A stretch of 40,432 nt of DNA from an uncultured Thermoleophilia bacterium (GTDB lineage Bacteria; Actinomycetota; Thermoleophilia; UBA2241): assembly GCA_963715985.1 (NCBI GenBank), contig CAVQSP010000001.1, positions 1 through 40,432 of the forward strand. The letters run 5' to 3'. The notes beneath the pieces are model-generated. The model was not told the origin of the DNA, did not search any database, and saw only the letters and a program-made list of their open reading frames with translations. Position 1 is the stretch's first letter, and each line of letters begins with the position of its first letter. A program made the position numbers and the translations under genes. This document shows positions 6,777 through 24,355 of this stretch, piece after piece.

Positions 6777-7600
6777 TCACCCCAGGGCGGCAGCCGGTTC
6801 GCTGATGAGGATCTCCCCCTTGCCGAGCCAGCAGGTGTCGCCGCTGAAGCGCCGGTGGAGGCCGCCCCATCCGCGCTCCGGTGCAGGCACGCCCCGCTTC
6901 TCCAGGTGGGCCGCGTACACGCGCAGGAACGTCGGCTCGTAGGTGCAGGCGTAGAGAAACGTCGGCAGAAGCTTGAGCGGCTCATACGCGATGATCGTGC
7001 CCCTGGCCATCCAGGCGCCGGCGCGGATGCCCGCCCTGCCGAGCAGGAAGAGGGTGCCGCCCTTCATCTGCATGCCGACGAAGTCGCCGACCCGACCGCC
7101 TATGCTGATGAGACCACGCAGCATGCGCATCCCTACCTCGATCCCGGCGTCGCCGTCGATAGGATCTCGCCACCCCGCATGCCCACGGTGCTGCCACGGT
7201 AGGCCGCGCCGACCTGCCCGCCGGCCCTGCCGTGGACGTGGATGAGACCGCCGGTCATCTCCGCGCCCAGCCAGTCCGCGGCGTCACCGTCGACGGTGAT
7301 GGTCCCGCCGCTCATCGACGCTCCGAGATGCATCCCCGCGTTGCCGTGCACGGCGATGCTGCCCTGCGTCATGCCCCGGCCGATCCACTTGACCTGGGCG
7401 AGGTCTCCGTGCAGTTCGAGAGACGCGCTCCTCTCGCCCTCCACCTCGAAGAAGTCCCCGAGGCGCCTCTGCCGATTACCCAGAAACACCGGCAGAGCCA
7501 AGATGTCCGCGTGTGTCAGACCGGCGATGACGTCGGGCGAGAGCGCCTCCGCTTCGAGCGGGGTCGCCAGATCCTCTTTGAGAGTCGCTACGACGCTCAC
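6777..7600 (-). CDS. fwdC: Formylmethanofuran dehydrogenase subunit C, copy 1 (one frameshift near 7150)
   Basis: PLEAEALSPD, RLGDFFEVEG, repeated GxxMxGGxIxVxG beta-helix units, GAAYRGSTVGMRGG, terminal FSGD..GKGEILI. Confidence 0.88.
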
Positions 7601-7674
7601 CTTGCCGTCACCTCGCTCATGTCCGCGCCGAGGACACCCTCGACAGCCGGATCCTGACTCGTCGCTCGCGCGCT

Positions 7675-8980
7675 TCACTGGCCCCGGGCGGCGGCCCTGA
7701 GCGCGACCTCTTTCAGGAGTCCGCCGCATGACTTCCTCGTCGGTCGGGTATGGCGACTTGAGCGACGGCCGCACGTGCAGAGGGACCTCATCCATGCGGT
7801 AGACGGTGCCGGGGGCGCTGATGCCCGTCACGGCGGTGGTGATGTGCACGCGAGCGAGCTCGGCTGGTGTGCGTGACCTTCGGGTCCAGGACGATCGTCG
7901 GCACCCGCGCGCATGTGGTCGATGGCCGGCTTGGGCATCGTCGCCCCGGGGTCCGCGGCGAGCACCAGCACGGCATCGACCTCGCCGCGGGTGAGCAAGT
8001 CGATGGTGGTGTACTCGCCGGGGTTGTAGCGCGGATAGCCGCGGCTGAAATCGACCCCGAACGGATAGCCCGTCAGCCAGCTCGTGACGGCATCGGCGCC
8101 GGTCACGTTGCCGTGACCGCGCAGCGGCATCGCCACGAAGCGGGTGTAGTCGTTCATCTCCACACCCAGCGTGAGTACGGCGGCCGCATTCATGTACTTG
8201 CCGCGGGTCATGGTCAGGCCCATCCCGAAGAACATCGCCCCATAACGGGCGCTCTTCATGCGGTCCGCCAGGTCCTGGAGCTGCTCCAGCGTGAGACCCG
8301 TCTCCTCGAGGCACTGCTGGTCGACGCGACGGCCCTTGATGAGCGCACGCAAAGCCGTGAGAGCCTCGAAATCCTTGCCCGGGCGGATCTGAAGGAAGAT
8401 GTCGGCGACGCGCGCACTCGGCGTGTTGCGGATGTCGACGAGGACGACCGTCCGCCCTTTGCGGCCCTCGGGCGTGTACTTGCCCTTTCGGCATCACGGA
8501 GTAGCGGGTGAAGTGGCGAGGATGGCACTCCGACGGATTGGCGCCCCAGAGGATGACCAGGTCGGCCCGATCCCTGATCTCGCCCAGCGTGGCTTTTGAC
8601 CTACCGCCCAACTGGGCGGCCATTTCGCTAGGGCCGTGTCACAAGGATGAATGGCTGTCGACCACCCCTCCGAGCCGCTCCGCGAGCAGCACCGCCTCGC
8701 GCTGGGTCTCGCACGTCGTATTGCTCAGGCCGTAGATGAGAGGGTAGTGAGCATCGACGAGGATGTCCGCCGCCGCCGCCACCGCGGTATCGAGATCGGC
8801 GGGCTGTCCGTCGATGAGCGCCGCCGGATAGTGCGCCTCGGCATCATGGTTCGTGAACCAAGCCCCACCCAACGCGCACGCGTGCTTGGCCTTGACGATG
8901 CGATCCCCCTCGGTCTGCACCTCGATGTCGTCGCAGACGCAGCCGCAGAACGTACACACGGCGTTGGTGACGGTAGCCAT
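7675..8980 (-). CDS. fwdB: Formylmethanofuran dehydrogenase subunit B, predicted selenoprotein (UGA at 8639-8641; several frameshifts downstream)
   Basis: CTFCGCVCDD..HAC Fe-S motif, SSL[UGA]HGPS, TLGEIRDRADLVILWGANP..HPRH..RYS, PLRGHGNVTG, WLTGYPFGVDFSRGYPRYNPGE, GTVYRMD. Confidence 0.9.
8600..8632 (-). promoter_or_regulatory. Bacterial SECIS-like hairpin
   Basis: 3' of the UGA: stem GCCGCCC/GGGCGGU with apical loop AGUU starting 25 nt after the UGA; lower CCUA/UAGG pairing possible. Confidence 0.7.
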
Positions 8981-9048
8981 TGCTTACTCCTCAGCCGATC
9001 GATTGACCGATGTTATCGAGCGCCCGCACGGGGCGCAGCCCTGAATGC

Positions 9049-9224
9049 TCAGCCCAGTGCCCCGCCGAGGAAGCTGCCGCGGACGCGGCGCGGAAGCCAC
9101 AGATCGTCTCCGATCTCCTCCCACGGCAAGACATCCTCGTCGCGGGTACCTTGCGGTTCGCGCCGGGCAGGTTGAATCTGGGCTGTGTGTCGTTGGAAGC
9201 CCTGGATGTCTCCACGATCGTCAC
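9049..9224 (-). CDS. Possible small hypothetical protein between fwdD and fwdB (would need one frameshift)
   Basis: AAGGAG upstream; pieces ..ETSRASNDTQPRFNLPGANRKV and RDEDVLPWEEIGDDLWLPRRVRGSFLGGALG*; no family recognised. Confidence 0.3.
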
Positions 9225-9249
9225 GCTCCTTCACTACGTCTCGGACCGG

Positions 9250-9600
9250 TCACTGGCCCCGGCTCGTCTGGCCGGTGGCGGGCTCGACCTCGACCTCCCA
9301 GTTCTTCTGCGATGGCATCCCCGTGCCGTCCGTGTCTCCGCCCATGAGCTGACACGTGGGCGGCCCGTAGGGGACGAAGACCATGCCGGACGGGAGATCG
9401 CCCTCCGCGCAGCTGTACACGGCCTCGCCCCATTCAGTGCGCACGCGGACCGGATCGCCGGGCGCGAGGCCCATGTCCGCGAGATCCTGCGGATTCATGT
9501 CCAGAGTGCTGACCACCGACAGGTACTCATCCCTGAGCTTGCCCATGTTCTCCTGCTGGCCCTGCTTGATCGTCCGTCCGGCGACGAACACACAATGCAT
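9250..9600 (-). CDS. fwdD: Formylmethanofuran dehydrogenase subunit D (molybdopterin dinucleotide-binding)
   Basis: AGRTIKQG, MNPQDLADMGL..GDPVRVRTEWGE, GMVFVPYGP, TDGTGMPSQK; AAGGAGG RBS before ATG at 9600. Confidence 0.88.
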   Translation of the reverse strand: MHCVFVAGRTIKQGQQENMGKLRDEYLSVVSTLDMNPQDLADMGLAPGDPVRVRTEWGEAVYSCAEGDLPSGMVFVPYGPPTCQLMGGDTDGTGMPSQKNWEVEVEPATGQTSRGQ

Positions 9601-9830
9601 ACGGTCCTCCTTCGCCCCGGGAGCGTATCGGGTCAGAGCTTCGTGCTGCGAGATCGCAGAATGATACAGCATCGTTGCCGGCGGCAGAGCAGTGACACCG
9701 GATCGCCGGACGTGGGCCCGGCCGACGCCTGCCGGGCAGGGGGTCGCCCTCCTCGAGGGTCTGTGGCCTGAAGCTAGGAACGGCCTCGATCGGGAGGATG
9801 CCATCCGCTATATTTCTCTATAGTAGACCA

Positions 9831-9859
9831 TTGACAGTCAAGAGCTGGCTCCATAGAGT
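9831..9859 (+). promoter_or_regulatory. Sigma70-type promoter of the main C1 operon
   Basis: TTGACA (9831-9836), 17 nt, TAGAGT (9854-9859), with an AT-rich stretch upstream. Confidence 0.65.
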
Positions 9860-10074
9860 CGCCGGCGCGATACGAAGGCTACCCCTGCGGAGGGGATGGT
9901 CTGGCTGTTCCGAAGTTGCCGCACCCTGACAGCCGGGCTGCCGAGATGGTATCGGTGGGCCGGCTTTCGCGTCTCCGAGACCGGTCTCGAGGCGGAACGG
10001 AGCGAGGAGGTGAGAGGCCTCCCGGCGCCGCGCCGGTCGACGGCCAGTTCGTCGCCAGTGAGCGGCTTCACGGG

Positions 10075-10090
10075 AAACAAACAAACAAAC
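10075..10090 (+). repeat. (AAAC)4 tandem repeat in the operon leader
   Basis: AAACAAACAAACAAAC in GC-rich DNA. Confidence 0.9.
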
Positions 10091-10105
10091 GGCAATGTCT
10101 GCGTC

Positions 10106-10129
10106 GTGCCTGTGATAGGCATTTCTTTT
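10106..10129 (+). terminator. Leader terminator/attenuator-like hairpin with U tract
   Basis: GTGCCTG-TGA-TAGGCAT followed by TTCTTTT, 25 nt before the first ATG. Confidence 0.45.
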
Positions 10130-10153
10130 CACCAAACGGAAGGAGGGTCAGGT

Positions 10154-10357
10154 ATGCAGTGTTATGTGTGCGCGAAGGCCGGCAAACAGACCGAAGCGGT
10201 CGGCATCTGTATCGTGTGCGGCATGGGTCTCTGCATGGATCACGCGCTCCGTGAGGATGTCGATCTCTGGGAAGGGGGCTACCCGTTCCCGAGCCAGAAG
10301 GCCAAGAAGAAGTTGCCGCGCATCCTCTGTGCGGAGTGCAAAGCGGTGGTGGGCTGA
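10154..10357 (+). CDS. DUF2180-like small Cys-rich (Zn-ribbon) protein, 67 aa
   Basis: MQCYVC..AVGICIVCGMGLCMDH..GGYPFP..LPRILCAEC; AAGGAGG RBS. Family recognised from memory. Confidence 0.75.
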   Translation: MQCYVCAKAGKQTEAVGICIVCGMGLCMDHALREDVDLWEGGYPFPSQKAKKKLPRILCAECKAVVG

Positions 10358-10480
10358 GCGGAGCCGTCTCGGGCTGAACTGGCCAGCCGGACCGCGTATC
10401 AGCGGTGACGAGGGCCGGAAGGCGATGTCCACAGGTGTATCCACGATCGGGAATCGGTCAATCAAGGTACGGAGGTAGAG

Positions 10481-12013
10481 ATGTCGCTGTACGAGAAGAT
10501 GATCAACGAGGCAGTCGGCGCGACCAAAGCGGTGTTCGGTGTGAACAAGGCCAACCGCGGCGGCACTTTCAAGGTCACCGATGCCAAGCCGTACGTCGAC
10601 GCCGTGAACAAGATGACGGCGTACGAGGGGCAGTCCCAGGAAGTCATCGACCTGCACGTGAAGTCGGTCAACGCCCACTTCGACGTCATGACCTCCCTCA
10701 CGGAAACGGTGCGTCCTGAGGACGATCCGTTCGTCGAGCACTATCAGACGCCGCCGATCCTCGAGATCATGTATGAAGAGGATCCCGCCTTTAAGGCTTC
10801 GATGTGGAAGTTCATCGACGCCATCGCCGCCAACAAGGCGCTCGTCGGCCTCGAGGCTGCGCGCCGCTACGGCGGCATGTACGGCCCGACGTGCGTCGTG
10901 GACTTCGCGATGTCGGTCGGCTCGGTGCCCAACCTCGTGAACCAGATCCTGGTCCCGATGGACATCCCGGCCGACCACAAGAAGACCATCCTCGCCTGCA
11001 AGTCGTGGGGCATGAACACCTCCTACGGCCTCGCCGGTGCCTTCCGCGCCGCCGTCGAGTCGGGCAAGACCCTGGCCGACGCTGAGCAGGCCGAGGTCGA
11101 CATGCTGCAGTTCGTGTACCGCGAGCCCTCCGCCGCGCAGGCGCAGCTCATGGCCACCCACAACCTCGGCGGCCACGGCCCGCACAGCTCCTTCGATGTG
11201 GTCAAGTACATGGCTCAGTACAAGGAGGCCATGCGTCCCACCATCGTCGCCGCCATGAAGGCCGGCGTGCACTACGCCAACATCACCGCCGTGCCCGCCT
11301 ACTGCGTCGGCGACGTCGCCCACCACATCGCGCAGTCGGCGTACAACATGTTCAACGACGACATGGTGTTCGCGATCTACGAGGCCGTCACCGGCGTGCT
11401 CGAGAACACGCTGAACCGCGCCCTCAAGGCCGACGCCTTCAAGGGCCCCTACGATGTGCTCTCCGTCGCCACCGGCTCCACCGCCTGCGCGACTGCCTAC
11501 ATCCTCTGGAAGGACAGCTTCACGGTCCCGATGGTCATCGACCTGCTCAACAAGCGCTTCCACAACTACGCCGCCATGCATCCGGATCGCGGCGAGGCCG
11601 ACGAGCTGCACAACGTCGACTTCATGGACATCCTCAAGCGCGGCGAGCACATCCTCGACATCAAGCCGATCGGCGCCGGCGGCAAGGTCAAGGGCGTCGA
11701 GGTCGACCTGAGCACGGTCGACGGCAACGATGTCATCAGCAACCCGCAGCGCTACACGTATCCGGCCTGTGCCATCACCCAGCGCTTCGCCGCCCTGATG
11801 ACGCTGTCCGACTTCCCGTGCTTCCTGACGCCTGAGTGCACGACGGCGACCCTCATGACCAACGCCATCGCCGTCGCTCCTGGCACTCCTGGCGCCCCGG
11901 TTCGTGCCTGCAAGGACTGCGCGACGTGCGCCCTGATCAAGAGGAACGTCCCCATGGCGACCGGTCGTGGTTCCGGCGCCGTGGGCTACTGCCAGTGGAA
12001 CGTGGCCGTCTGA
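10481..12013 (+). CDS. DUF2193-like protein, 510 aa, with C-terminal CxxCxxC
   Basis: LYEKMINEA..RG..FKVTDAKPYVDAV, PEDDPFVEHYQTP, YGPTCVVDFA, KSWGMNTSYG, C-terminal CKDCATC; GGAGG RBS; intact ORF. Family recognised from memory. Confidence 0.75.
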   Translation: MSLYEKMINEAVGATKAVFGVNKANRGGTFKVTDAKPYVDAVNKMTAYEGQSQEVIDLHVKSVNAHFDVMTSLTETVRPEDDPFVEHYQTPPILEIMYEEDPAFKASMWKFIDAIAANKALVGLEAARRYGGMYGPTCVVDFAMSVGSVPNLVNQILVPMDIPADHKKTILACKSWGMNTSYGLAGAFRAAVESGKTLADAEQAEVDMLQFVYREPSAAQAQLMATHNLGGHGPHSSFDVVKYMAQYKEAMRPTIVAAMKAGVHYANITAVPAYCVGDVAHHIAQSAYNMFNDDMVFAIYEAVTGVLENTLNRALKADAFKGPYDVLSVATGSTACATAYILWKDSFTVPMVIDLLNKRFHNYAAMHPDRGEADELHNVDFMDILKRGEHILDIKPIGAGGKVKGVEVDLSTVDGNDVISNPQRYTYPACAITQRFAALMTLSDFPCFLTPECTTATLMTNAIAVAPGTPGAPVRACKDCATCALIKRNVPMATGRGSGAVGYCQWNVAV

Positions 12014-12059
12014 GCAAGCCGGCCTTCGGGGCGCGCTGAGGGCTGCGCGCACCGGATCA

Positions 12060-12092
12060 TGCGGGGGCCGGGCTGAAGGCCCGGCCCCCGCA
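12060..12092 (+). terminator. GC-rich hairpin after DUF2193 (terminator or mRNA stabiliser)
   Basis: TGCGGGGGCCGGGC-TGAAG-GCCCGGCCCCCGCA, 14-bp perfect stem, no U tract. Confidence 0.6.
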
Positions 12093-12129
12093 CGGACCAC
12101 CCTGTCACTACGTTCCTGGAGGTAACACA

Positions 12130-12900
12130 GTGCCACAACCCACACTCGCGAAGCGGGCGATCACGGAATTGATCGGCACCTTCGTGCTCGTGTTCCTGGG
12201 CACCGGCTCCGTGGTGACCGTCGTCACGAAACTCGGATTCCTGGGCCCGACCGGCGGTGAAGGCACCGGGCTCGTCCCGGGAGGCCTGCTCCTCATCGGC
12301 CTCGCCTTCGGCTTCGCCGTGCTCGTCATGATCTACGCCTTCGGGCACATCTCCGGCACCCACATCAACCCTGTGGTGAGTATCTGCCTGTGGGCCACCG
12401 GCCGTTTCCCGGCCAAGGACATGGTCACGTACGTCGTCATGCAGCTCATCGGCGCCACAGCGGCCTCCCTCATTATCGCGGCCATCTGGGGTCAGGCGGC
12501 GATCGACGCAGGTCTGGGCATCACCCTGCCTGGCACCGGTATCAGCTATGGGATAGCTATTCTGTGCGAGCTCGTGACGACCGCCTTCCTGGTCATCGTC
12601 ATCTGGGGCTCCGCGGTCGACAGCCGGGCGCCGAGCGGCTTCGCCGGCGTCGCCATCGGCATCGTGGTCGCCGCAGACATCATGGTGACAGGCCCCATCA
12701 CCGGCGCCTCGATGAACACCGCGCGTTCGTTTGGGCCGTTCCTGGCCGAGACGATCTTGGGCGGCAAGAACGCCGACGGCGCTGCCATCGCCGACTGGGC
12801 CAAGTTCCCCATCTACATCATCGGGCCGATCGTCGGCGGTCTCATCGCCGCGTTCGTCTACGACTACATCTCGGGTATCAAGAACAAGGCGGCGGAGTAA
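12130..12900 (+). CDS. MIP/aquaporin family channel (AqpM-like)
   Basis: ELIGTFVLVFLG, GHISGTHINPV, GASMNTARSFGP, YIIGPIVG; multiple hydrophobic helices. Confidence 0.93.
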   Translation: MPQPTLAKRAITELIGTFVLVFLGTGSVVTVVTKLGFLGPTGGEGTGLVPGGLLLIGLAFGFAVLVMIYAFGHISGTHINPVVSICLWATGRFPAKDMVTYVVMQLIGATAASLIIAAIWGQAAIDAGLGITLPGTGISYGIAILCELVTTAFLVIVIWGSAVDSRAPSGFAGVAIGIVVAADIMVTGPITGASMNTARSFGPFLAETILGGKNADGAAIADWAKFPIYIIGPIVGGLIAAFVYDYISGIKNKAAE

Positions 12901-13048
12901 GCGATTCCGGCGTCGCTCAAGCGTGGCCGAATCTGGCCGCGGAGACATGACACTGAGGCGGGCGGGGGCGTGACGCACGTCGCGGATTCCCCCGCCCGCG
13001 CTCATATCGGAGCCAGGTGGCTGCAAGCGAGAGTCTGGCGGTGATCGC

Positions 13049-13660
13049 ATGGGCGGGACCGGCATCACGCTGCTGGGCATATCCGGGAGTCCTCGCCTGA
13101 AGTCCACGCACTACGCCGTCAACGAAGCTCTCGAGTACGCGCGAGACCGTCACGGCGTCGAGACCGATTACTTCAGCGTGCACAAGAACGCCATCGGATT
13201 CTGCACGCACTGCGACTTCTGCGTCAGGAAGAAGCAGGGCTGCATCCAGGACGACGCCATGCGCGAGGTCTACGAGAAGATGCTTCGAGCAGACGCCTGG
13301 ATCCTCGGCAGCCCCGTCTACCAGGGGCAAGTCAGCGGTCAGATGAAGACGCTCCTCGATCGCTGTCGCGCTGTGGTGGCTCGTGACGTACACGCGTTTC
13401 GCAACAAGGTGGGGATGGGCATCTGCATCGGCGGTGACCGCAGTGGCGGCCAGGAGCCGTCGCTGCAGTCGCTGGTCGACTTCTATCTCATCAACCAGAT
13501 GATCCCCGTCGGGGGCGGCGCGTTCGGCGCCAATCTCGGCGCCGCGATATGGTCGCGTGACAAGGGCGCCGACGGAGTCAAGGCGGACGATGAGGGTCTG
13601 GCGGCCGTGCATCGCGCCGTGGACCGTCTCGTTCACGTGGCGCGACTTCTCCGCCCGTGA
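13049..13660 (+). CDS. Iron-sulfur flavoprotein (Isf/flavodoxin-like)
   Basis: GISGSPR, CTHCDFCVRKKQGC cluster motif, GSPVY, KTLLDR, RSGGQE. Confidence 0.85.
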   Translation: MGGTGITLLGISGSPRLKSTHYAVNEALEYARDRHGVETDYFSVHKNAIGFCTHCDFCVRKKQGCIQDDAMREVYEKMLRADAWILGSPVYQGQVSGQMKTLLDRCRAVVARDVHAFRNKVGMGICIGGDRSGGQEPSLQSLVDFYLINQMIPVGGGAFGANLGAAIWSRDKGADGVKADDEGLAAVHRAVDRLVHVARLLRP

Positions 13661-13683
13661 CCCGCTGTGAGGAGGTCCACGAA

Positions 13684-14250
13684 ATGACACTGAAGGTCGT
13701 GTGGGGCATCAGCGGTTCCGGCGACAAGATGCCCGAGACCGTCGCCGCCATGGTGGAAGTGCAGAAGCGGCTCGACGTGGAGATCACGGCGGCCGTCTCC
13801 ATCGCCGGGGTGCGGGTGCTGCGCTGGTACAAACTGACCGAGACGGTGGAGGAGATCGCCAAGTCGGTGAAGATCGAAAAGGACGCCAACTCACCGTTCA
13901 TCACCGGGCCTCTGCAGATCGGTCAGTACGATTGCCTTCTGGTGGCGCCCGCGACTGCGAACTCGGTGGCCAAGATCGCACACGGGATCGAGGACACCAT
14001 GCTGACCAACGCCGTCGGTCAGACCGCCAAGTCCACGACGCCGATCTACATCATGCCGGTCGACCTCCGCCCGGGGACGACAGTCACGATGCGCCCGGGC
14101 GGCGAACGCCTCGAGCTCAAGATCCGCGAGATCGACGTGGAGAACACGAACAAGTTGCGGACGATGGAGGGGATCACGGTGTTCGAATCACCCTCCGAGA
14201 TCGAGGGCATCCTCCGCGCCTGCGCGGAACGGCGGGACGCCGCCTCGTGA
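13684..14250 (+). CDS. afpA: Archaeal-type flavoprotein AfpA (dihydromethanopterin reductase family)
   Basis: VVWGISGSGD, LQIGQYD.LLVAPATANSVAKIAHGI.DT.LTNAV, PVD; H4MPT cluster context. Confidence 0.8.
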   Translation: MTLKVVWGISGSGDKMPETVAAMVEVQKRLDVEITAAVSIAGVRVLRWYKLTETVEEIAKSVKIEKDANSPFITGPLQIGQYDCLLVAPATANSVAKIAHGIEDTMLTNAVGQTAKSTTPIYIMPVDLRPGTTVTMRPGGERLELKIREIDVENTNKLRTMEGITVFESPSEIEGILRACAERRDAAS

Positions 14251-15218
14251 GGGTGTCGGTCGCCACCGGTTGCAGGCTTCACCTGGGCTTCACCAATCTC
14301 AGCGACGACGTCGGTCGGTGCTTCGGGAGCATCGGCGTGGCTCTCGACCGCCCCAGCACGACGGTCGTGGTGGAGGAAGGCGGCGACGCGGCGACCATCG
14401 TCGGCGACGACCCGGAGCAGATCCGCTCCTGTCTGCGGCGCTTCTGTGAGCATTATCAGGTGGACCCGAGAGTCTCCATCGATGTCCGTGAGAGCATCCC
14501 CCAGCACGCGGGCCTTGGATCCGGCACCCAGCTCGCGCTGGCGATCGGTCTCGGTCTGGCCAGAGTCTGCGGCATCGACGCCGATGTGTGGGAGGTCGCC
14601 ACGGCCATGGGCAGGGGACGGCGCTCCGGGGTCGGGACCGCGGCCTTCCAGGCGGGCGGCTTCATCATGGACGCCGGCCATCGAAAGGGCCGCAGCGGAA
14701 GGGAGGCGGCGCCGACAGTCGTGTGGCGCCGGGACTTCCCCGCCGACTGGCGGTTCCTGGTCGTCCTGCCCGACGTCGAGAGAGGCATGAGCGGGCGCAG
14801 CGAAGAGGGGGTCTTCGGCGCCCTCCTGCCGTCGGTGCGGATCTCCGAAGAGGTGTGCCGGATCGCGCAGCTCAGACTCATGCCGGCTCTCGTAGAGCGC
14901 GACATCGAGGAGTTCGGGCGCGCTTTGACCGCTGTGGACCGCAAGACGGGCGAGTACTTCTCAGACGTGCAGGGCGGGCTCTACAGCGGAGGCGACGTCA
15001 ACGCCGTCATCGAGACGCTCTTGAGGGCGGGCGCCTACGGTGCCGGTCAGAGCTCGTGGGGCCCGGCCGTCTACGGTCTGGTGCACGAGCGGGACGCGGA
15101 GCGGGTCGAAATGGCCACCCGCGCGGCCCTGGCGGAGCAAGGCCTGGGGGCAGCGTTCTTCGTGAGCCACGGCCGCAACACCGAGGCAAGGGTAGAAGTG
15201 CCGAGGGCGGCCCTATGA
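14247..15218 (+). CDS. mptG: Beta-ribofuranosylaminobenzene 5'-phosphate (RFAP) synthase
   Basis: RLHLGF, FGSIG, PQHAGLGSGTQLAL (GHMP), RG.RSGVG, GGFI.D.G, GQSSWGP. Confidence 0.9.
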   Translation: MRVSVATGCRLHLGFTNLSDDVGRCFGSIGVALDRPSTTVVVEEGGDAATIVGDDPEQIRSCLRRFCEHYQVDPRVSIDVRESIPQHAGLGSGTQLALAIGLGLARVCGIDADVWEVATAMGRGRRSGVGTAAFQAGGFIMDAGHRKGRSGREAAPTVVWRRDFPADWRFLVVLPDVERGMSGRSEEGVFGALLPSVRISEEVCRIAQLRLMPALVERDIEEFGRALTAVDRKTGEYFSDVQGGLYSGGDVNAVIETLLRAGAYGAGQSSWGPAVYGLVHERDAERVEMATRAALAEQGLGAAFFVSHGRNTEARVEVPRAAL

Positions 15219-15800
15219 GTCCGGCTGGAGCTGCTGGAGCAACGCCTCCAGCGCCGTTTGGTAGGCCGACCCAGGGGCCACCTTGCGCACGACGCGGAGG
15301 TTCTCGGTGAGCGCCGTCAGCACGCTGGAAGCATCGACGCGCTCGATCCTCGTGAAGAGCACGAGACTCTCCAGCAGAAGCCCCTCCGCGCGATTGATGA
15401 GGCGCGGGGTGCCGTGGCACAGCACGCGCCTCACGCTGCCGACGACGCGCACGGTCTGGGCGTCGCGCGTCGTGCTCTTGAGGGTCAGCTCCACGGTGGC
15501 CGTGCAGCCGTCCACATGTGGGGCATGCTGGCCCGGCGCCTGTACGAACGTCAGGTCCCGCGGGGAACAGAGGGCCGCGTACAACATCGCAACGTCACGA
15601 GGGAAATTGGCCGCGAACTCGCCGTTGCGCAGGATGGCGGCCAGCGTGTGGGAGCCGTCGTACAGGTCCATCGACAGCTCATCGGCAGCGTCTGCCCACA
15701 CGCCCACGGGGGCAGCGTGGGGACCCCGCTGACCCAAGGTGGAGACCAGAGCTTCGTAGATCCAGCCCGGCCGCAGGCCGAGCACGTCGAGCTGGTGCAT
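15213..15800 (-). CDS. DUF447-like protein (orf22-type, H4MPT cluster)
   Basis: YEALVST..PHAAPVGV, split-barrel-like segment, NRA..LLE.LV..TRI. Confidence 0.7.
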   Translation of the reverse strand: MHQLDVLGLRPGWIYEALVSTLGQRGPHAAPVGVWADAADELSMDLYDGSHTLAAILRNGEFAANFPRDVAMLYAALCSPRDLTFVQAPGQHAPHVDGCTATVELTLKSTTRDAQTVRVVGSVRRVLCHGTPRLINRAEGLLLESLVLFTRIERVDASSVLTALTENLRVVRKVAPGSAYQTALEALLQQLQPDS

Positions 15801-15937
15801 GTGCCATCCTGTGCGCGGTGGCGGGTGACGCCTGTGAGGGTACGGACAAGTGAGACGGAGTGGGAGTATATCGTGGGCGGGCGCGAGCTGATGGGCGCCG
15901 GCCGACAGACGCTCTCACCACGGGAGGTGTGAGTGTC

Positions 15938-16799
15938 ATGAAGAAGATCCTCGTGCAGTTCGACAGCGATCGGGTCGCTGCCGTGTTCGATGCGGTCACG
16001 GCGTATGACGCCGGCATCGACGCGCTCCTGCAATACGGCGGTATCGAGCCCGGCGAAGTCCGCGACCTCGTGTACGGCGCCATGTTCACGCGCGGCCCCG
16101 CCGATCTCAAGAACACCGCCGTCTTCATCGGCGGCATCGACGTGGCCAAGGGCGAGGCGATCCTCCGCGAGGCGGTGGGCTCGTTCTTCGACCCCCTGCG
16201 CGTCTCCGTGATGCTCGACTCCAACGGCTGCAACACGACGGCGGCGGCGGCCGTGGTCAAGGTGATCTCGGCGGTGGCCGTGAGCGGGCAGAAGGTCGTG
16301 GTGCTGGCGGGTACCGGACCGGTGGGGCAGCGGGCCGCCGGACTGCTCGCGGCCGAGGGCGCTCAGGTGACCCTGACCTCACGTGACGATCGAGCGCGCC
16401 CAAGCGGCGTGCGCCGTCATCAAGGACCGTTTCGGCGCCGACGTGACGGCGGCAGTGGCGGACAACGAGGCCGCCACCGCGGCGGCGCTCGAAGGCGCGT
16501 GCGCCGCGGTGTGCACGGGCGTCGAGGGCATCCAGCTCGTACCTGAGAGCATCTGGCGGGAGCACCCGACACTGCGCGTGCTCGCCGACGTCAACGCGGT
16601 ACCGCCGCTGGGCGTCGAAGGTACGAAGGCGACGTGGAACGGTAAGGAGGTGGGCGACAAGCTGTTGTATGGCGCCCTCGGCATCGGCGATCTCAAGATG
16701 AAGGTGCACAAGCGCTCTATCGCCCGCCTCTTCGAGCGTAATGACCTCGTCCTCGACGCCGAGGGCATCATGGAGAGCGCCAAGGAGCTGGCCGGGTAG
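15938..16799 (+). CDS. mtd: NAD(P)-dependent methylene-H4MPT dehydrogenase, MtdA/B/C family, MtdC-like (frameshift near 16385)
   Basis: KKILVQFDSD...VFD, FTRGP.DLKNTAVFIGG, DSNGCNTTAAA, AGTGPVG, DVNAVPPLGVEG, GALGIG.LKMK.H. Confidence 0.9.
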
Positions 16800-17986
16800 T
16801 GCGCATCCTCGTCCTCGGAGTGAGCACCCGGGCGATGGTGGAATCGGCCGTCCGCGGCGGCCACGACGTGGTCGCCGCGGACTTCTTCGGGGACCGCGAT
16901 CAGGCGCGGCTCGCGGAGAGCTACGCTCTGCAACGCGACCTCGGTCTGCCGGCGACCGCGGAAGGCCTGGCGGCCGCGGCGCGGTGCCTCGAGGCCGACG
17001 CCATCGTGTACGGCTCGAATCTGGAGAACCATCCGCTGGTCATCGCCGAGCTCGCCGCCCATCGCCCGCTGTTGGGCAACGCGCCCGAAGTCGTGCGGCG
17101 CGTGCGCGACTGGGCGGTGCTGCGGCGTTTCTGTGGCGAGGCCGGGCTGTCGCATCCCGTGACCCTGCTCGCGGGTGAGGAACGCGCTGTGGGGCCGGGC
17201 CGCTGGCTGAGAAAGCGTGTGCGTAGCGGCGGCGGTCACGGCGTCCGCCGATGGGACGGCAAGGCGCTCGACGATGCCCACCTGCTTCAAGCCGAGGTCC
17301 GCGGTCGCCCTGCCTCGGTCGCGTTCGCGGCAGACGGCCGGCAGAGCCTGGTGTTCGGCGTCAGCGAGCAGCTCGTCGGGCGGGCGAGCCTCGGCGCCTC
17401 CGGCTTTTCGTGGTGCGGAAACCTGCTGCCGCTGGACCTCCCCGCCGCCGACGCCGCGTCCGTGCTTGCGCAGATCGACGAGATGGCGTCCGCGCTGACG
17501 GCTCACTTCGGACTCGTCGGCGTCAACGGGCTCGATATCGTGATCGGCCGCGACCCGGACGGAGTCGCGCGGCCGTATCTGCTCGAGGTCAATCCGCGGT
17601 TCAGCGGCTCCATGGAGCTTGCGGAACGCGCCTTCGGCGTGAACGTGTTCTCGTTGCACGTCGAGAGCGCCGCCGGGCGGCTGCCGCAGTGGGCTCCGGC
17701 CGCTCGCGACGGTCACGTCGGTAAGGGCATCGTCTACGCGCGGCGCCCGCTGACCGCCCCGGACGCGGGAGTGTGGATGGCTCGTGGTCTGCGCGACGTG
17801 CCGTCGACCGGTCTGCGGATAGCCGCCGGGCACCCCGTGTGCACCGTGCTGGCGCGGGGTGCCGACCGTCGAGAGTGCCTTGCCGGTCTCGTCTCGGCGG
17901 CGTCCGCAGTGTACGCCGACGCGGAGGCCGCCGAATTGTCGCGCAGCGAGAAGACCAGGTCCGCCGGTCGACACAGCTACGCGTAG
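16799..17986 (+). CDS. ATP-grasp ligase, OrfY/MyfB-like
   Basis: STRAM.ESA.RGG..V...DFFGD.D, GGGHGV, GLVGVNGLD, LEVNPRFSGS, G.PVCTV. Confidence 0.8.
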   Translation: MRILVLGVSTRAMVESAVRGGHDVVAADFFGDRDQARLAESYALQRDLGLPATAEGLAAAARCLEADAIVYGSNLENHPLVIAELAAHRPLLGNAPEVVRRVRDWAVLRRFCGEAGLSHPVTLLAGEERAVGPGRWLRKRVRSGGGHGVRRWDGKALDDAHLLQAEVRGRPASVAFAADGRQSLVFGVSEQLVGRASLGASGFSWCGNLLPLDLPAADAASVLAQIDEMASALTAHFGLVGVNGLDIVIGRDPDGVARPYLLEVNPRFSGSMELAERAFGVNVFSLHVESAAGRLPQWAPAARDGHVGKGIVYARRPLTAPDAGVWMARGLRDVPSTGLRIAAGHPVCTVLARGADRRECLAGLVSAASAVYADAEAAELSRSEKTRSAGRHSYA

Positions 17987-18330
17987 GCGGGCGGGAGGCA
18001 TGCATCATGCGAAGCATATGTCGCTCGACCGCCGTAGACGGGCGGGTGGTCGTCGCGTGCCGTTCTCTTTGCTCGAGCGCGAGCTTGTCATCGTGGACCT
18101 GGGGACGCACACTCACGTGAGAGTGCGTGATCCAGGAGTGTGGACCGTGAGGATCCACGGCTTTCGGCCTCGAGGCGGGGTACCCCGGCCGGGCGCCGGT
18201 CGAGCCTGGCACGGCGATCTGTTCACCGCCTGCGGCGGTGTGAAGTGAGCTTGAATGATAGGCAGTGCGTCCGGCGTCCACAGCGGGCGTCGGCCGGCGG
18301 CCGGGAGGTCGAGTGGGAGGAGGCTGTGCG

Positions 18331-19965
18331 ATGATGCTCGGTATTCTCGGTGGGCGGATCTACGACCCGCGCAACGGCAAAGACGGCGAGATCGGCGACA
18401 TCTGGGTGGAGGACGGCCGGGTCGTCGCGGCTGAGGACGTGGACCGCGAGACGGCGCAGACCGTCGACGCCACCGGCCTGGTGGTCATGCCGGGCGGCGT
18501 GGATATCCACGCGCACATCGTCGGCGGCGAGGTGAACTCGGGCCGCAAGCTACAGCCGGAGGATCACCGCGGGCACGAGCGCGCACGGTCCGGAGACCTC
18601 CGCGCGGGCACCGGTGGCGTCGTGCCGTCGACCCACCTCACCGGGTATCTCTACTCAGAGCTCGGCTACACCACGGTGATGCAGGCGTCCGCGGCGCCGC
18701 TGGCGGCGCGGCACGTCCACGAGGAGCTCGAGGACGTGCCGAACATCGACAAGGGCGCCCTCACCGTCATGGGCAACAACCACTTCGTCATGCAGGCCAT
18801 CGCCGACGGGCGGTACGACAAGGCCAAGGACTACGTTGCCTGGCTCCTCGGGGCCAGCCGCGGCTATGGCATCAAGGTCGTCAACCCGGGCGGCGTCGAG
18901 AACTGGAAGTGGGGCAAGAACGTCGCCGAGCTCGACGACGAGGTGATCGGCTACGGGGTCACCCCGCGGCAGATCGTGCAGACCCTGGCCCGGATCGCCG
19001 ACGATCTCGGGCTTCCGCACTCCGTGCACGTCCACGGCATCAATCTGGGGCGGCACACGAGCGCGCGCACGACCGTCGAGATGATCGACGCCCTCGACGG
19101 CCACCGTGCGCACCTCTGTCACCTTCAGTTCCTGAGCTACGGTGCCGGCCGCACGCATGTGCACAAGTCAGAGGCGGCCACCGTGGCGGCGGCGGTCAAC
19201 GCCAACCCCAACATCACCGTCGACGTCGGGCAGCTGGTCTTCGGCGATGCCACGACGATGACGTGCGACGGCCCCCTCCAGTACGCCCTTCATCGGACCA
19301 CCGGCCACAGGTGGGTCAATACCGACGTGGAGTCCGAGACCGGCGGCGGGATCGTGCCGATCACCTACAAGGCGAGCAATCCGATCAACGCCACGATGTG
19401 GCTGACCGGCATGGAGCTCTTCCTGCTCATCGACGACCCTTGGCGGGTCTTCTTGAGCACCGATCACCCCAACGCCGGTCCCTTCACGAGCTACCCACAG
19501 ATCATCAAACTGTTGATGGACCGCGAGTACCGGCGCGAGATGTTCGACAGCCTCAGCCCGCGGGCGCGGAAAGGAGCCCTGCTCCCCGAGCTGGACCGCG
19601 AGTACTCGCTGAACGAGATCGTCATCATCAGTCGCGCGGGTCCCGCGCGGACGCTGGGCCTCGAGCGCAAGGGCCATCTGGGTGTCGGCGCCGACGGCGA
19701 CATCGCCGTGTACGACGATCTCGCCGACAGGGAGGCCATGTTCGCGCGCCCGCGCTACGTGTACAAGGCCGGCGAGCTCGTGGCCCGCGACGGCGCCGTC
19801 GTCACGGACGTGAGCGGGCACGCCTTCTCCGTGGCGCCGGAGTACGACATCGCGCTCGAGGACGAGCTGCGCGAGCACTTCAGGGAGTGGTACACGGTGT
19901 CGTTCGACAACTACTCTGTTCTCGCCGGCGACGATCTCCCCACCGAGATCGTCGCCTGCACGTGA
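18331..19965 (+). CDS. fwdA: Formylmethanofuran dehydrogenase subunit A (amidohydrolase, FwdA/FhcA)
   Basis: GG.IYDP.NG, PGGVDIHAHI, GIKVVNPGG, LPHSVHVH, E.ETGGGIVP, STDHPNAGPF. Confidence 0.93.
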   Translation: MMLGILGGRIYDPRNGKDGEIGDIWVEDGRVVAAEDVDRETAQTVDATGLVVMPGGVDIHAHIVGGEVNSGRKLQPEDHRGHERARSGDLRAGTGGVVPSTHLTGYLYSELGYTTVMQASAAPLAARHVHEELEDVPNIDKGALTVMGNNHFVMQAIADGRYDKAKDYVAWLLGASRGYGIKVVNPGGVENWKWGKNVAELDDEVIGYGVTPRQIVQTLARIADDLGLPHSVHVHGINLGRHTSARTTVEMIDALDGHRAHLCHLQFLSYGAGRTHVHKSEAATVAAAVNANPNITVDVGQLVFGDATTMTCDGPLQYALHRTTGHRWVNTDVESETGGGIVPITYKASNPINATMWLTGMELFLLIDDPWRVFLSTDHPNAGPFTSYPQIIKLLMDREYRREMFDSLSPRARKGALLPELDREYSLNEIVIISRAGPARTLGLERKGHLGVGADGDIAVYDDLADREAMFARPRYVYKAGELVARDGAVVTDVSGHAFSVAPEYDIALEDELREHFREWYTVSFDNYSVLAGDDLPTEIVACT

Positions 19966-19977
19966 GGAGGCCGTTGC

Positions 19978-20955
19978 ATGCCTGACGACCCAGGGTGCCG
20001 TGTGCAGCGAGACACCCAGCTGGCCCCGCCGGCCGTGTCCGTGGCTCTCAGCCGCGCCGGCGTCACCAATCTGCGCCGCATCATCTCGATCACGGACGGC
20101 GGCAAGGCCGAGCTGTTCTACGCGACGCTCGACCTCTTCGCCGATCTCAGTCCCGAACACGCGGGCGTGCACATGTCGCGCTTCAGCGAGGTCGTGGAAG
20201 ATCTCGCTGAAGGGCTTACGCGCAGACCCTTCGCCGACATCGAGTCGCTCGCCAGACGCATGGCCGAGGAGGTCGTCGAGACTCAGGAAGCCCTGCGTGC
20301 CGAGGTCCACATCAAGGCGCAGTCGCCGATCACCAAAGAGACGCCGATGACGCACCGCCCTACCGAGCAGCTCTACACGCTGGTGGGCATCGCCGCGGCC
20401 ACCCGCACGAGGACGCGTCTTCTGGTGGGGGTGGAAGTGAACGGTCTGACGGTCTGCCCGTGCGCGCAGGACATGGTGCGTGGCATGTCCTTGGACCGCC
20501 TCTGCGAACACGGCTATAGCGAGGAGGAGGGCGAGCGCATCCTGAGCCTGTTGCCCATCGCCTCGCACAATCAGCGCGGCAGGGGCACGCTGCTGATCGG
20601 CTCGGAACGGCGCATTGGAGCCGAGGAGCTCGTGGCGATCGTCGAGGGATCGATGAGCTCCGAGATCTACGAGCTCCTCAAGCGCCCCGACGAGCTGTAC
20701 GTGGTCGACAAGGCGCACCGCAATCCGCGTTTCGTGGAGGACGTGGTGCGCGAGATGGTGCGCCGGGTCCTCGAGGCCTACCCCGACCTCTCGGACGACT
20801 CGTTCATGCTGGCCCGCCAGGAGAACTTCGAGGGCATTCACGAGCACAACGCGTTCGCGGAACGCTACGGCACCATGGCGGAGATCCGTCCCGAGCTCGC
20901 CGGCGAGGCGTACGCCGGGCGGCACACTGCCTTGAGCGAGTGGCTCGCCGGGTAG
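19978..20955 (+). CDS. mptA: GTP cyclohydrolase MptA (FolE2 family)
   Basis: LSRAGVT, GVHMSRF, TVCPCAQ, SHNQRG, ELLKRPDE, NPRFVED, ENFE.IH.HNA.A. Confidence 0.88.
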   Translation: MPDDPGCRVQRDTQLAPPAVSVALSRAGVTNLRRIISITDGGKAELFYATLDLFADLSPEHAGVHMSRFSEVVEDLAEGLTRRPFADIESLARRMAEEVVETQEALRAEVHIKAQSPITKETPMTHRPTEQLYTLVGIAAATRTRTRLLVGVEVNGLTVCPCAQDMVRGMSLDRLCEHGYSEEEGERILSLLPIASHNQRGRGTLLIGSERRIGAEELVAIVEGSMSSEIYELLKRPDELYVVDKAHRNPRFVEDVVREMVRRVLEAYPDLSDDSFMLARQENFEGIHEHNAFAERYGTMAEIRPELAGEAYAGRHTALSEWLAG

Positions 20956-20970
20956 AGGGAAGCTCCTGCC

Positions 20971-22317
20971 GTGCCCGACATGCTGTTCGTGACCGGCAGG
21001 CTGGCCGCCGACGCGCTGCGCCGGACCCTCGGCACGCTCGAGCTGGACTTCGAGCACGAGGTCAAGGTCCTCGGGGGCTCGGTGGCGGCGCTCATGCGCA
21101 CCGAGTGGATCGCGCGGCGCCTGCCCACGGACTGCACGTGTGCCCAGGTCATGATCCCCGGACTCTGCAGAGGCGATCTCGGCCTCATAGAGGCGAGGGT
21201 CGGCGTCCCGGTGGTCCGTGGTCCCAAGGACCTCAAGGATCTGCCCGCCTTCTTCGGGCAGGAGCGTGTCCTCGAGGGCTACGGCGAGTACGACGTGAAG
21301 ATACTCGCCGAGATCGTCGAGGCCTACCGGATGCCCTTCGCAGAGATCCTCACGCGGGCCGAGTACTTTCGCTCCGGCGGTGCCGACATCATCGACCTCG
21401 GCTGCCCGCCGATGGAGGCGTTCCCCGGCGTCGCCGAGGTGGTCGCGGGGCTCAAGGAGCGCGGGTTCACGGTCAGCATCGACACCTTTCACGCGCAGAC
21501 CATCCGCGAAGCCGACGAGGCGGGGGTGGATCTCCTGCTCAGCGTCAACGCGCAGAACATGGAGCTCGTGCCGCACCTCCACTGCAAGGTCGTGGTGATC
21601 CCGGATTTCGGGGAGGGTCTGGAATCTCTGGAGCGCAACGTGGCGACGGTGGACGCCACGGGCGCAGCGTACGTGATCGACCCCATCCTCGACCCGCTCA
21701 GCTTCGGCTTCACTGCGTCGCTCGAACGGTACTGCGAGGTGCGCCGGCGGTACCCCGAGGCGGAGATGCTGATGGGTCTCGGCAATCTCACCGAGCTGAC
21801 GGACGCCGACAGCGTGGGCATCAACGCGCTGATGGCGGGCGTCATCGCCGAGCTGGGCATCGACTACTTGCTCACCACCGAGGTCATCAGCTGGACACGT
21901 GGCGCCGTGCGCGAGCTCGACGTGGCTCGCAAGCTCATGCACTACGCGGTCAAGAATCGCGAGCTTCCCAAGGGCCTCGACGACGGCCTCGTCGCGCTCA
22001 AGGACACCCCGTTCGAGACCTACTCGGAGGCGGAGCTGCGTGATATGCAGCGGCAGGTGCGCGACAGGAACTATCGGATCTTCGCCGACCGTGAGCGGGT
22101 GTACGTATTCAACCGCGACACCTTCGTGCGCGGGCACGATCCGCACAGGCTCTTCCTCGCGTTGGACGTCGCCGACCCCGGCCACGCCTTCTACCTCGGC
22201 CGCGAGCTCGAACGCGCGGCTCTTGCGGTGCAGCTCGGCAAGAAGTACACGCAGGAGTCGCCGCTGCGCTGGGGATACCTGAGCGCGACCGCCGACGGGG
22301 AGGACGGCCCCAGGTGA
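20971..22317 (+). CDS. Pterin-binding dihydropteroate synthase-like protein (orf20-type)
   Basis: LFVTGRLA, VAALM, GPKDLKDLP, GADIIDLGC, SIDTF, GNLTELTDADS.G.N, HAFYLGREL..A. Confidence 0.85.
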   Translation: MPDMLFVTGRLAADALRRTLGTLELDFEHEVKVLGGSVAALMRTEWIARRLPTDCTCAQVMIPGLCRGDLGLIEARVGVPVVRGPKDLKDLPAFFGQERVLEGYGEYDVKILAEIVEAYRMPFAEILTRAEYFRSGGADIIDLGCPPMEAFPGVAEVVAGLKERGFTVSIDTFHAQTIREADEAGVDLLLSVNAQNMELVPHLHCKVVVIPDFGEGLESLERNVATVDATGAAYVIDPILDPLSFGFTASLERYCEVRRRYPEAEMLMGLGNLTELTDADSVGINALMAGVIAELGIDYLLTTEVISWTRGAVRELDVARKLMHYAVKNRELPKGLDDGLVALKDTPFETYSEAELRDMQRQVRDRNYRIFADRERVYVFNRDTFVRGHDPHRLFLALDVADPGHAFYLGRELERAALAVQLGKKYTQESPLRWGYLSATADGEDGPR

Positions 22318-23445
22318 CGCGGGCCATCGGCATCGATCCGGGGACGGTGAGTTTCGACGTGTGCGGCCGCGACGGAGAGCGCGTGTTCCTGGACGCGACC
22401 TATGCCACGGCCGACGTCGCTGACGATCCGCGGCCTCTTGCTGAGCTCCTGCGCGCGGCCGCCCCGGTGGACCTCGTGGTCGGGCCGTCAGGGTACGGGC
22501 TGCCGTGGACGGACCTGCGTGACGTCGGCCCGGAGGAACTCGACCTGATGCTGCTGGCCGACGCCGGCGACGGCCCACGAGGGACGATCATCGGCGGTAT
22601 GGGGCGCGTTGCTGGAGGCGCTCAGGGGGAGCAGCCTGCCGGTGTGCTTCGCGCCCGGCGTCCTCCATCTGGCGACGGTCCCGGAGCACCGCAAGGCCAA
22701 CCGCATCGACATGGGCACCGCCGACAAGCTGTGTGCGGTCGCGCTCGCGGTGTGGGATCAGGCGCGCCGCCTGGGCGTGCCGTACGACCAGACGTCGTTC
22801 GTGTTCGTCGAGGCCGGCGGCGCGTTCACGGCCGTCATCGTCGTCGAGCGCGGCGCGATCATCGACGGCTCTGGGGGGACGGGTGGCGCGATGGGGTTCC
22901 GGGCGCTGGGCGCCATGGACGGTGAACTGGCGTACCTGCTCAGGGACTTCCCCAAGGACGTCCTCGCGAGCGGGGGGGCGGCGTGGATCGCCGGCGCGCC
23001 GGCGAGTTCGCCTGAGGCTCTCGTGGCCGCCGCCGCGAGCGATCTGCGGGCCGCGGCGGCGCTCACCGCCCTGGTGGAGGACGTGACCAAGCGCGTCGCC
23101 GCGGAGGCGGTCCTGTTGGAGGCGCCCCGCGAGATCCTTCTGTCCGGGCGGCTGACCCGCGTTCCTGAGCTGCGCCGTCGTCTTGCCGAGTCTTTGCGCC
23201 GGTTCGCCGCGGTGCACGTCGTGGGCGGGTACGCCGGGGTCAGCAGCGAGGCCGCACAAGGGGCCGCCCTTCTCGGCCAGGGACTGGCCGGCGAGGGCGG
23301 CCTGAGCGGCCTCGTGGACGCGATGGGTCTGCGCGATGCTCGCGGTAGCGTGCTCGATCACTTGTTCGTCAGCGAAACTGAGTCTCTGCGTCGTCGCCAT
23401 CCGTTGCCGTGCCGTCCGCAGGTGCCGTTCTGGGAAAGGAGCTGA
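22314..23445 (+). CDS. DUF1464-like ASKHA-fold protein (frameshift near 22600)
   Basis: IGIDPGTVSFD, GPSGYG, PGV.HL.TVP.HRK.NRIDMGTADK, GA.DGELAY, AAQGAAL. Confidence 0.75.
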
Positions 23446-23452
23446 CCCTCTC

Positions 23453-24342: not shown

Positions 24343-24355
24343 GGAGGCTGCGGCG

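Follow-up and report, generated by a model that had tools for sequence, protein, structure and literature searches.

A probable bacterial-type selenocysteine insertion element within the fwdB coding sequence of an uncultured Thermoleophilia bacterium

How a bacterium decodes an in-frame UGA within fwdB, encoding the catalytic subunit of formylmethanofuran dehydrogenase, is the question raised by the DNA stretch analyzed here (the window; 40,432 nt). The window is the entire contig C1 of a 22-contig metagenome-assembled genome (MAG; label G000) of a Thermoleophilia bacterium living in soil or sediment; the MAG is 4.35 Mb in size, 88.8% complete and 7.3% contaminated. An earlier note, made from the sequence alone, had proposed a bacterial-style selenocysteine insertion sequence (SECIS) inside the coding sequence of an archaeal-type enzyme. 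This proposal is supported by a hairpin that fits the bacterial SECIS model, by the position of the UGA at the catalytic Cys, by the presence of the hairpin in 55 of 55 selenocysteine (Sec) genes compared with one of 39 Cys genes, and by a bacterial SelB. We assign a probability of about 0.9 to the reading of the fwdB hairpin (8620-8603) as a bacterial SECIS, and we infer SelB binding and actual Sec insertion at the fwdB UGA.

The fwdB UGA and its downstream hairpin

In a search of PDB sequences, the residue encoded by the UGA fell on the Cys of the vCHGPS motif of two FwdB chains, 5t5i_B and 8rja_B (E 3.5e-45 for the latter), and on X in chain 9sfi_Q. In the 5t5i work, this Cys is reported to be the tungsten ligand. 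The reading frame goes on past the UGA and the NCBIfam model TIGR03129 matched on both sides, with 193.6 bits (profile 1-161) and 221.9 bits (164-354). Neither fragment alone reaches the cut-off of 327.8 bits, the plain sum of the two exceeds it, and frameshifts in the assembly preclude full-length scoring. With the N-terminal 163 residues as query, archaeal chains were matched at E 1e-32 to 4e-45 and bacterial Sec orthologues were 57-97% identical.

The N-terminal Cys motif C9/C12/C16/C35 was invariant. FhcB of the Methylorubrum extorquens formyltransferase/hydrolase complex (6s6y_B) is likewise a bacterial FwdB homologue in a tetrahydromethanopterin (H4MPT)-linked one-carbon pathway, but its match started at query residue 53 (E 1.9e-7) and it is without the N-terminal CxxCxxxC region of the window FwdB. 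Because this region is present in the window protein and 6s6y_B matched only from residue 53, the predicted product is a true FwdB and not FhcB. The term 'archaeal-type enzyme' is loosely worded, as true FwdB is widespread in bacteria with H4MPT/methanofuran one-carbon genes.

The AGUU loop located 25 nt past the UGA and the GCCGCCC/GGGCGGU stem described previously were recovered at agreeing coordinates on the minus strand (Table 1). RNAfold, proposed earlier as a check, placed the 7-bp hairpin in the core of the minimum free energy (MFE) fold. The hairpin evaluated alone gave -13.6 kcal/mol and a 24-nt segment gave -14.7 kcal/mol; the 121-nt fold had a z of -2.58, with three of 200 shuffles equally good. 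A chance control was made with a simplified bacterial SECIS model on 4000 Cys codons sampled from the 6635 in confident open reading frames (ORFs) of the same genome (~70% G+C). Among these control codons, 15.05% passed the simplified model with a downstream hairpin, 10.05% had a stem of at least 7 bp and 2.25% reached -13 kcal/mol or lower. The single sequence by itself is therefore no more than suggestive, and the comparative data carry the SECIS case.

Further CCUA/UAGG pairing had also been noted. It is present in the sequence (8632-8629 with 8603-8600), but it lies outside the MFE fold, competes for U8603 and is not conserved. The CCUA place holds CCCA or CCAA in the relatives G018 and G033, and RNAalifold retained just the 7-bp helix. 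The atypical codons listed in the earlier note were borne out by codon counts from 1417 ORFs (629,541 codons) of the genome: TTG accounted for 2.6% of Leu, TCA for 3.2% of Ser, AGG for 6.1% of Arg and AAA for 4.6% of Lys, with GGT at 7.3% of Gly. Beyond the closest relatives, TTG alone of the noted rare codons is kept.

The bacterial SECIS model has a loop of 3-9 nt, a stem of 4-16 bp, a spacing of 16-37 nt and an MFE of -7.5 or lower; one or both of the initial two loop nucleotides are G, and the next nucleotide is as a rule G or U (as restated in PMC13188914). The fwdB hairpin has a 4-nt loop and a 7-bp stem, the same in 55 orthologues, a spacing of 25 nt and an energy of -13.6 kcal/mol against the limit of -7.5. 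The G at loop position 2 is followed by U, and AGUU is invariant in all 55. In addition, the in-frame UGA aligns with Cys in homologues and the genome has selA, selB, selC and selD. According to the same text, archaeal SECIS elements are mostly in 3' untranslated regions and have a GAA_A bulge (PMC13188914), whereas the window element is inside the coding sequence and bacterial in kind.

The E. coli fdhF/fdnG elements and the bacterial model (Zhang and Gladyshev, 2005, restated in PMC13188914) likewise have a stem-loop within the coding sequence directly 3' of the UGA. E. coli-type SECIS and the fwdB hairpin are alike in their small apical loop with G then U near the 5' side. The loop of E. 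coli fdhF is of the GGUC type, compared with AGUU in the window fwdB, and the E. coli element consists of an 11-nt spacer and a 17-nt minimal hairpin, compared with the 25-nt spacing in fwdB.

The genes for Sec decoding were detected on contig C13, where selD, which itself contains a TGA, is followed directly by selA and selB. A tRNA-Sec was found on the same contig by Rfam (67.4 bits) and ARAGORN, and SelB carries the RNA-binding winged helix SelB-wing_3 (PF09107). The comparison with other selenogenes of the genome, also suggested earlier, gave three further UGA genes, all with GU loops. Counted from the U of the UGA, fdhA has a 7-bp stem and loop GGUCU with GU at 23-24, and selD has loop CGUGC with GU at 21-22. 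In the third, an AhpC/TSA peroxiredoxin-like gene on the minus strand of contig C5 (C5:32752-33234; locus L175:353-835), the in-frame UGA belongs to the motif R-U-P-F-C. The hairpin of this gene, AUGGCGC-AGUU-GCGCCAU, has its stem at 22-28 and its loop at 29-32, offsets identical to those of fwdB, and the gene also encodes A-Q-L at codons +8 to +10. As the same AGUU geometry occurs in an unrelated gene, it appears to be a geometry used in this host.

The fdhA of this genome thus retains an E. coli-like geometry, unlike its fwdB. Since the two loops lie 7 nt apart in one genome, the same SelB would have to accept both. The positions of GU at 21-24 (selD and fdhA) and at 30-31 (fwdB and the peroxiredoxin-like gene), a difference of 7-9 nt, therefore offer a natural substrate set for the study of what SelB needs.

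Conservation of the hairpin and alternative explanations

Among 61 genomes of the same class, fwdB with one TGA was found in the window genome and in G012, G018, G028 and G033, and a paralogue ~52% identical carried TGT or TGC in eleven of the class genomes. GTDB species representatives were scanned with an alignment of six FwdB proteins and the best 80 loci were used. All 80 were bacterial by record title, and the site codon was TGA in 52, TGC in 17 and TGT in 11. The TGA loci together with the class relatives gave 55 distinct UGA sequences, spanning Thermoleophilia, Acidobacteriota and Planctomycetota, after removal of the duplicates L048 (identical to L021) and L051 (identical to L020), the second-paralogue loci L034 and L042, and L043 (fetched twice).

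The hairpin was present in all 55 sequences, which aligned without gaps, and RNAalifold returned exactly the 7-bp helix. Standard pairs filled 98.2% of the 385 cells, compared with 28.8-56.4% when the 3' partner was slid by 1-3 columns. Pair 37-48 was GU in 32 sequences, GC in 20, UA in one and unpaired in two; pair 36-49 was CG in 44, UG in 10 and unpaired in one; pair 34-51 was GC in 30, GU in 21 and GA in four. The only compensatory change was found in G028, where G-C became U-A through an Ala-to-Ser replacement and a synonymous GGC to GGA change. The other changes were nearly all wobble-compatible, including C to U opposite G in 10 and 2 cases, and the third positions of two Gly codons, which face G, alternated between C and U with few exceptions.

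The synonymous sites within the hairpin were frozen. The loop Leu at +10 was TTG in 55/55, Gln at +9 was CAG in 55/55 and Ala at +8 was GCC in 51/53. The invariant Leu at -1, on the other hand, varied in codon (TTG 23, CTC 18, CTT 13, CTA 1), Leu at +18 used five codons, and the codon entropies of other invariant Leu residues in the stretch were 1.65 and 2.01. Protein identity to the N-terminal query of the window went down to 57% within the clade. Because the flanks are saturated, the invariance of the hairpin is not explained by recent common descent. Covariation among UGA-containing homologues, put forward in the earlier note as a check, thus gave a helix in every sequence with thin true covariation and frozen synonymous sites.

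Equal conservation of the hairpin in Cys-encoding homologues had been named in the earlier note as an outcome that would refute the proposal. The opposite was observed: in a comparison set of 39 Cys genes (L033, with Ala at the site, was left out), the hairpin was absent from 38. The local 24-nt MFE was -13.5 +/- 1.8 kcal/mol in the Sec genes (n = 55) and -5.9 +/- 3.2 in the Cys genes (n = 39) at equal G+C (0.63 and 0.65).

Several observations weigh against the hairpin being a SECIS element. The 52-nt fold of the single sequence is not significant (-18.5 kcal/mol, z -0.99, 40 of 200 shuffles equally good). Rfam at the gathering score detected only a tRNA-Val and no SECIS family in the window, and a search of 8540-8700 with E up to 10 gave four chance-level matches, none to a SECIS family. 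Internal mismatches occur in L047 (A-A), L053 (G-G) and L072 (G-G), and the closing pair is G-A in four sequences. True covariation is thin, with one compensatory change in 385 cells and 13 of 500 shuffles reaching the observed score; the covariation being weak, the case rests mainly on suppressed synonymous change. One Cys homologue, L050 (a Gemmataceae MAG, TGC), keeps the full hairpin at -14.3 kcal/mol. In the tree described below it falls within the Sec clade, and it is best read as a recent Sec-to-Cys conversion with a relic hairpin. Finally, FwdB is readable only across three frames, so that no full protein is possible from the gene as assembled.

The last point leads to the alternative that survives best, although we consider it improbable: fwdB may be a decaying pseudogene here, with the UGA and the hairpin as nonfunctional relics. 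Compared with the intact genes of G018 and G033, fwdB-fwdC has five single extra bases (near 8485, 7911, 7863, 7719 and 7694) and one missing base (near 7161), and three frames are needed to read it. However, exactly these extra bases are absent from 95-99% similar contigs that were assembled from three public runs of two studies: one base each is left out at 8486, 7909, 7861, 7719, 7679, 7671 and 7653, and one is added after 7160. Among the differences listed for these contigs (23 more exist), none falls inside 8600-8641. Within each frame, FwdB is 87-91% identical to intact orthologues and has no stops, and trpE of the same contig is equally frame-split. We read the fwdB/fwdC indels as probable consensus errors from error-prone reads, which would explain all of these cases.

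A second alternative, which we regard as very improbable, is that the hairpin is a by-product of coding AAQLGG in G+C-rich DNA and has no decoding role, the UGA being read through or Sec being inserted without it. The peptide AAQLGG is itself conserved, 15.05% of the control Cys sites pass the simplified model, and only the single compensatory change was found. But many codings of this peptide are possible, and still TTG (rare in this genome), CAG and GCC were kept as described; the third positions facing G alternate just between C and U with few exceptions, and the AGUU loop recurs at an identical offset in an unrelated gene of the genome. Least probable of all is a role of the hairpin other than decoding, for instance to pause ribosomes while the cofactor is inserted, to stabilize the mRNA, or to act as an RNase site or terminator, with the nearby UGA a coincidence: the rare codons GGT, AGG, TCA and AAA after the hairpin in the Thermoleophilia copies could slow ribosomes, but they are absent from G028 and from the other phyla, no U-tract follows the hairpin, its geometry and GU loop fit the SECIS model, and its presence tracks the UGA state of the gene.

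For the hairpin as a SECIS element, the following sequence of events is proposed. GTP-loaded SelB with Sec-tRNA(Sec) would bind the apical AGUU loop (GU) through its C-terminal winged helix as the ribosome nears the UGA at 8641-8639. Sec would then be delivered in competition with release factor 2 (RF2), and the product would be a full-length FwdB with Sec as a ligand of the Mo/W centre. One near-invariant hairpin (CCC-AGUU-GGG) seems to work, or at least to be maintained, with the SelB of three distant phyla.

A second Sec FwdB paralogue, ~50% identical to that of the window, was observed in L140 (G028), L141 (G297) and L142 (G030), which belong to the same family of genomes. Its hairpin, GCCAGC-AAGUUGG-GCUGGC, lies 4 nt further downstream, and the AGUUGG that it shares with the window hairpin is read in a different frame. 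The group comprises just three sequences.

Inheritance of fwdB and relation to known selenoproteins

A quick maximum-likelihood tree was calculated from 95 bacterial FwdB rows and midpoint-rooted, with L033, L034, L043, L048 and L051 left out and the window gene represented by its first 163 residues only. The 55 Sec rows and L050 formed one clade with a Shimodaira-Hasegawa-like approximate likelihood ratio (SH-aLRT) support of 100. The five Thermoleophilia rows grouped with one Acidobacteriota MAG (support 97), and their sister group contained Planctomycetota and Acidobacteriota (support 99). The Cys paralogue that is common in the genus was placed at a great distance from the Sec clade. The SECIS would have come with the gene out of a Sec-fwdB lineage of bacteria to which Thermoleophilia, Acidobacteriota and Planctomycetota all belong. 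The statement that the gene is not a recent raw transfer from archaea holds in a tree without archaeal sequences, as all 80 best loci were bacterial and the window gene lies inside the three-phylum Sec clade.

The G+C content drops to 64-65% in bins 8001-14000, compared with ~70% elsewhere. This lower G+C across the fwd region points to its acquisition from another bacterium, with the SECIS already in place, and suggests that the low-G+C stretch (10409-14250 and the fwd genes) is acquired DNA. G+C is 69-71% in every contig of the MAG, and the same fwdB occurs on a 201-kb contig of a same-genus Thermoleophilia MAG; mis-binning of contig C1 is therefore unlikely.

Sec-containing FwuB/FwdB of Archaea was reportedly described by Vorholt and colleagues in 1997. 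The archaeal Sec proteins (Methanopyrus kandleri, Methanococcus) are homologues of this catalytic subunit, and their Sec likewise belongs to the U-H-G-P motif. In bacteria, Sec fmdB has been identified by Kim et al. (2016, PLoS One, PMC4807772), who found it in two unclassified bacteria besides Rhodopirellula sp. P2. The Rhodopirellula gene and that of the window belong to the same family and share the Sec position and bacterial selA/selB/selD, and in both systems Sec and Cys forms coexist in some lineages (PMC4807772). Rhodopirellula and Rubripirellula MAGs were also found in the Sec clade of the window gene with the same hairpin. The two systems differ in phylum, the present host being an actinobacterium of the class Thermoleophilia, and in gene order, which is fwdD-small ORF-fwdB-fwdC with fwdA 10 kb off here and fmdD-fmdB-fmdA-fmdC in P2 (PMC4807772).

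The main-text selenoprotein section of PMC4807772 gives no description of an fmdB SECIS hairpin, and bacterial Sec-FwdB is also in print in a 2026 review. Sec fwdB in bacteria is thus already known, and the hairpin is of a kind described before. What is added here is the host lineage, the wide distribution (52 of the 80 best species representatives) and an account of a near-invariant hairpin, although the supplements of Kim et al. may already show the hairpin. Gene callers cut fwdB in two at the UGA, both in the window and in no fewer than 52 genomes of species representatives from three phyla, so that counts of a redox-active, selenium-dependent formylmethanofuran dehydrogenase in soil and sediment bacteria are too low.

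The small UGA-containing ORF and the fwd neighbourhood

The minus-strand order in the window is fwdD-like gene, small ORF, fwdB and fwdC-like gene (Table 1). The small ORF has a Shine-Dalgarno sequence GAAGGAG followed by the start GTG at 9215-9213 (TTG in G018 and ATG in G033), and it ends with ...WLPRRVRGSFLGGALG-UGA(9051-9049)-AFRAAPRAGAR-TAA(9015-9013). A SECIS-like hairpin, GCGCCC-CGUGC-GGGCGC (9036-9020), starts 12 nt past this UGA. In this assembly the start codon and the UGA fall in different frames, which may be an assembly error or real; the stretch lies outside the public-run contigs.

Table 1. Positions of the putative SECIS hairpin, the fwd genes and one-carbon genes in the window.
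Feature	Position	Strand	Evidence or remark
Putative SECIS hairpin: GCCGCCC (8620-8614), loop AGUU (8613-8610), GGGCGGU (8609-8603)	8603-8620	minus	folds and alignment of 55 orthologues
18-nt spacer, UGA to hairpin base	8621-8638	minus	same length in all 55 orthologues (gap-free alignment)
In-frame UGA, predicted to be read as Sec, FwdB residue 114, motif SSL-U-HGPS	8639-8641	minus	alignment with Cys of FwdB chains
fwdB coding region	7640-8980 (ATG 8980-8978; end approximate)	minus	NCBIfam TIGR03129 on two fragments
Small unannotated ORF between fwdD and fwdB	9013-9215	minus	own in-frame UGA and hairpin
fwdD-like gene, molybdopterin dinucleotide-binding domain	9250-9807	minus	Pfam PF01568 1.6e-10; NCBIfam NF042908 1.1e-21
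fwdC-like gene	6777-7600 (start approximate)	minus	TIGR03122 1.4e-22; one base missing near 7161
fwdA, formylmethanofuran dehydrogenase subunit A	18343-19920	plus	TIGR03121 695.7 bits, above cut-off; Pfam Amidohydro_3
DUF447	15213-15914	minus	one-carbon island
ATP-grasp	16745-17986		one-carbon island
GTP cyclohydrolase, folE2/MptA type	19966-20955		one-carbon island
DUF6513 and pterin-binding domain	20956-22317		one-carbon island
DUF1464	22549-23445		one-carbon island
RimK-like ligase	26095-26964		one-carbon island

By tblastn, 54 of 56 Sec-fwdB loci have the small ORF upstream (the exceptions being L077 and the second-paralogue locus L042), but none of the 39 Cys-fwdB loci does, L050 included. 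The latter has thus lost the small ORF yet retains the fwdB hairpin. The order fwdD-small ORF-fwdB was kept in the 33 loci checked. The ORF has ~60-75 codons and the motif W..I...[WYF].P.R.[RK]GS..G..LG-U-xF. In 38 sequences, the peptide before U was conserved as amino acids with varied codons, and W, P, R, GS, G, LG, U and F were invariant.

The stem of the small ORF is in many phyla nearly GCCGCCC/GGGCGGC, as in fwdB, and this hairpin covaries. Among 47 sequences, pair 52-62 was U-A in 25, C-G in 20, U-G in two and unpaired in none, and pair 49-65 showed five pair types. The covariation score was 0.341, compared with 0.188 +/- 0.018 in shuffles, and none of 500 shuffles reached it.

A profile search with the small ORF gave 2885 protein clusters. 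Among the 120 clusters listed, 'hypothetical protein' was the sole source name (one was garbled and many were unnamed), no Pfam domain was present and most members had ~45-56 residues. Of 15 cluster sequences inspected, six stop at ...LG just before the UGA; in the other nine, which run on, the U position is occupied by W (5), R (2), C (1) or G (1). Searches with 38 members gave no credible match in NCBIfam (one member to hemE, E 0.22) and just single-member matches in Pfam (E 0.019-0.15), and the best hit of a PDB profile search had E 0.66. The ORF is therefore not among the NCBIfam-modelled selenoprotein families of the 2026 review.

We lean narrowly towards the view that the Sec form of bacterial Fwd is a two-selenogene cassette, in which the small ORF would be either a selenium-sensing leader gating expression of the Sec enzyme by UGA decoding or a selenopeptide that serves the Sec enzyme alone, as a subunit or as a chaperone. 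The leader reading is favoured by the strict tie to the Sec form and by the closeness to fwdB in many loci; other loci, in which the gap reaches up to 313 nt, weaken it. Neither a leader nor a Sec-Fwd selenopeptide was present in the prokaryotic selenoprotein catalogues checked. A literature search on selenium-sensing bacterial leader peptides gave nothing relevant among titles and abstract openings, and one on planctomycete selenoproteomes gave only Kim et al. (2016; PMC4807772) as relevant. A small linked Sec ORF, if true, could raise the question of selenium-dependent control or assembly of the Sec enzyme, and it is a lead worth following.

The fwdA gene is 10 kb distant from the other fwd genes, inside an H4MPT-biosynthesis gene cluster, and the region 13594-27000 represents an H4MPT/methanofuran one-carbon gene island. 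The region 10409-14250, divergent from fwdD, encodes a DUF2193 gene (match of 746.7 bits; the family is described by Pfam as 'conserved in archaea'), a MIP channel, a flavin mononucleotide (FMN) reductase and a flavoprotein. By tblastn, DUF2193 was not found beside fwd in 98 loci, a weak negative as the flanks were just 1.5-3 kb.

In G028 (locus L020), fwdB continues into fwdC in one open frame of at least 671 residues, a possible FwdB-FwdC fusion. A like continuity in one frame was seen at 6777-7700 of the window, uncertain owing to the indels. The two overlapping frames over which trpE is split on the same contig are 38815-39648 and 39632-40258.

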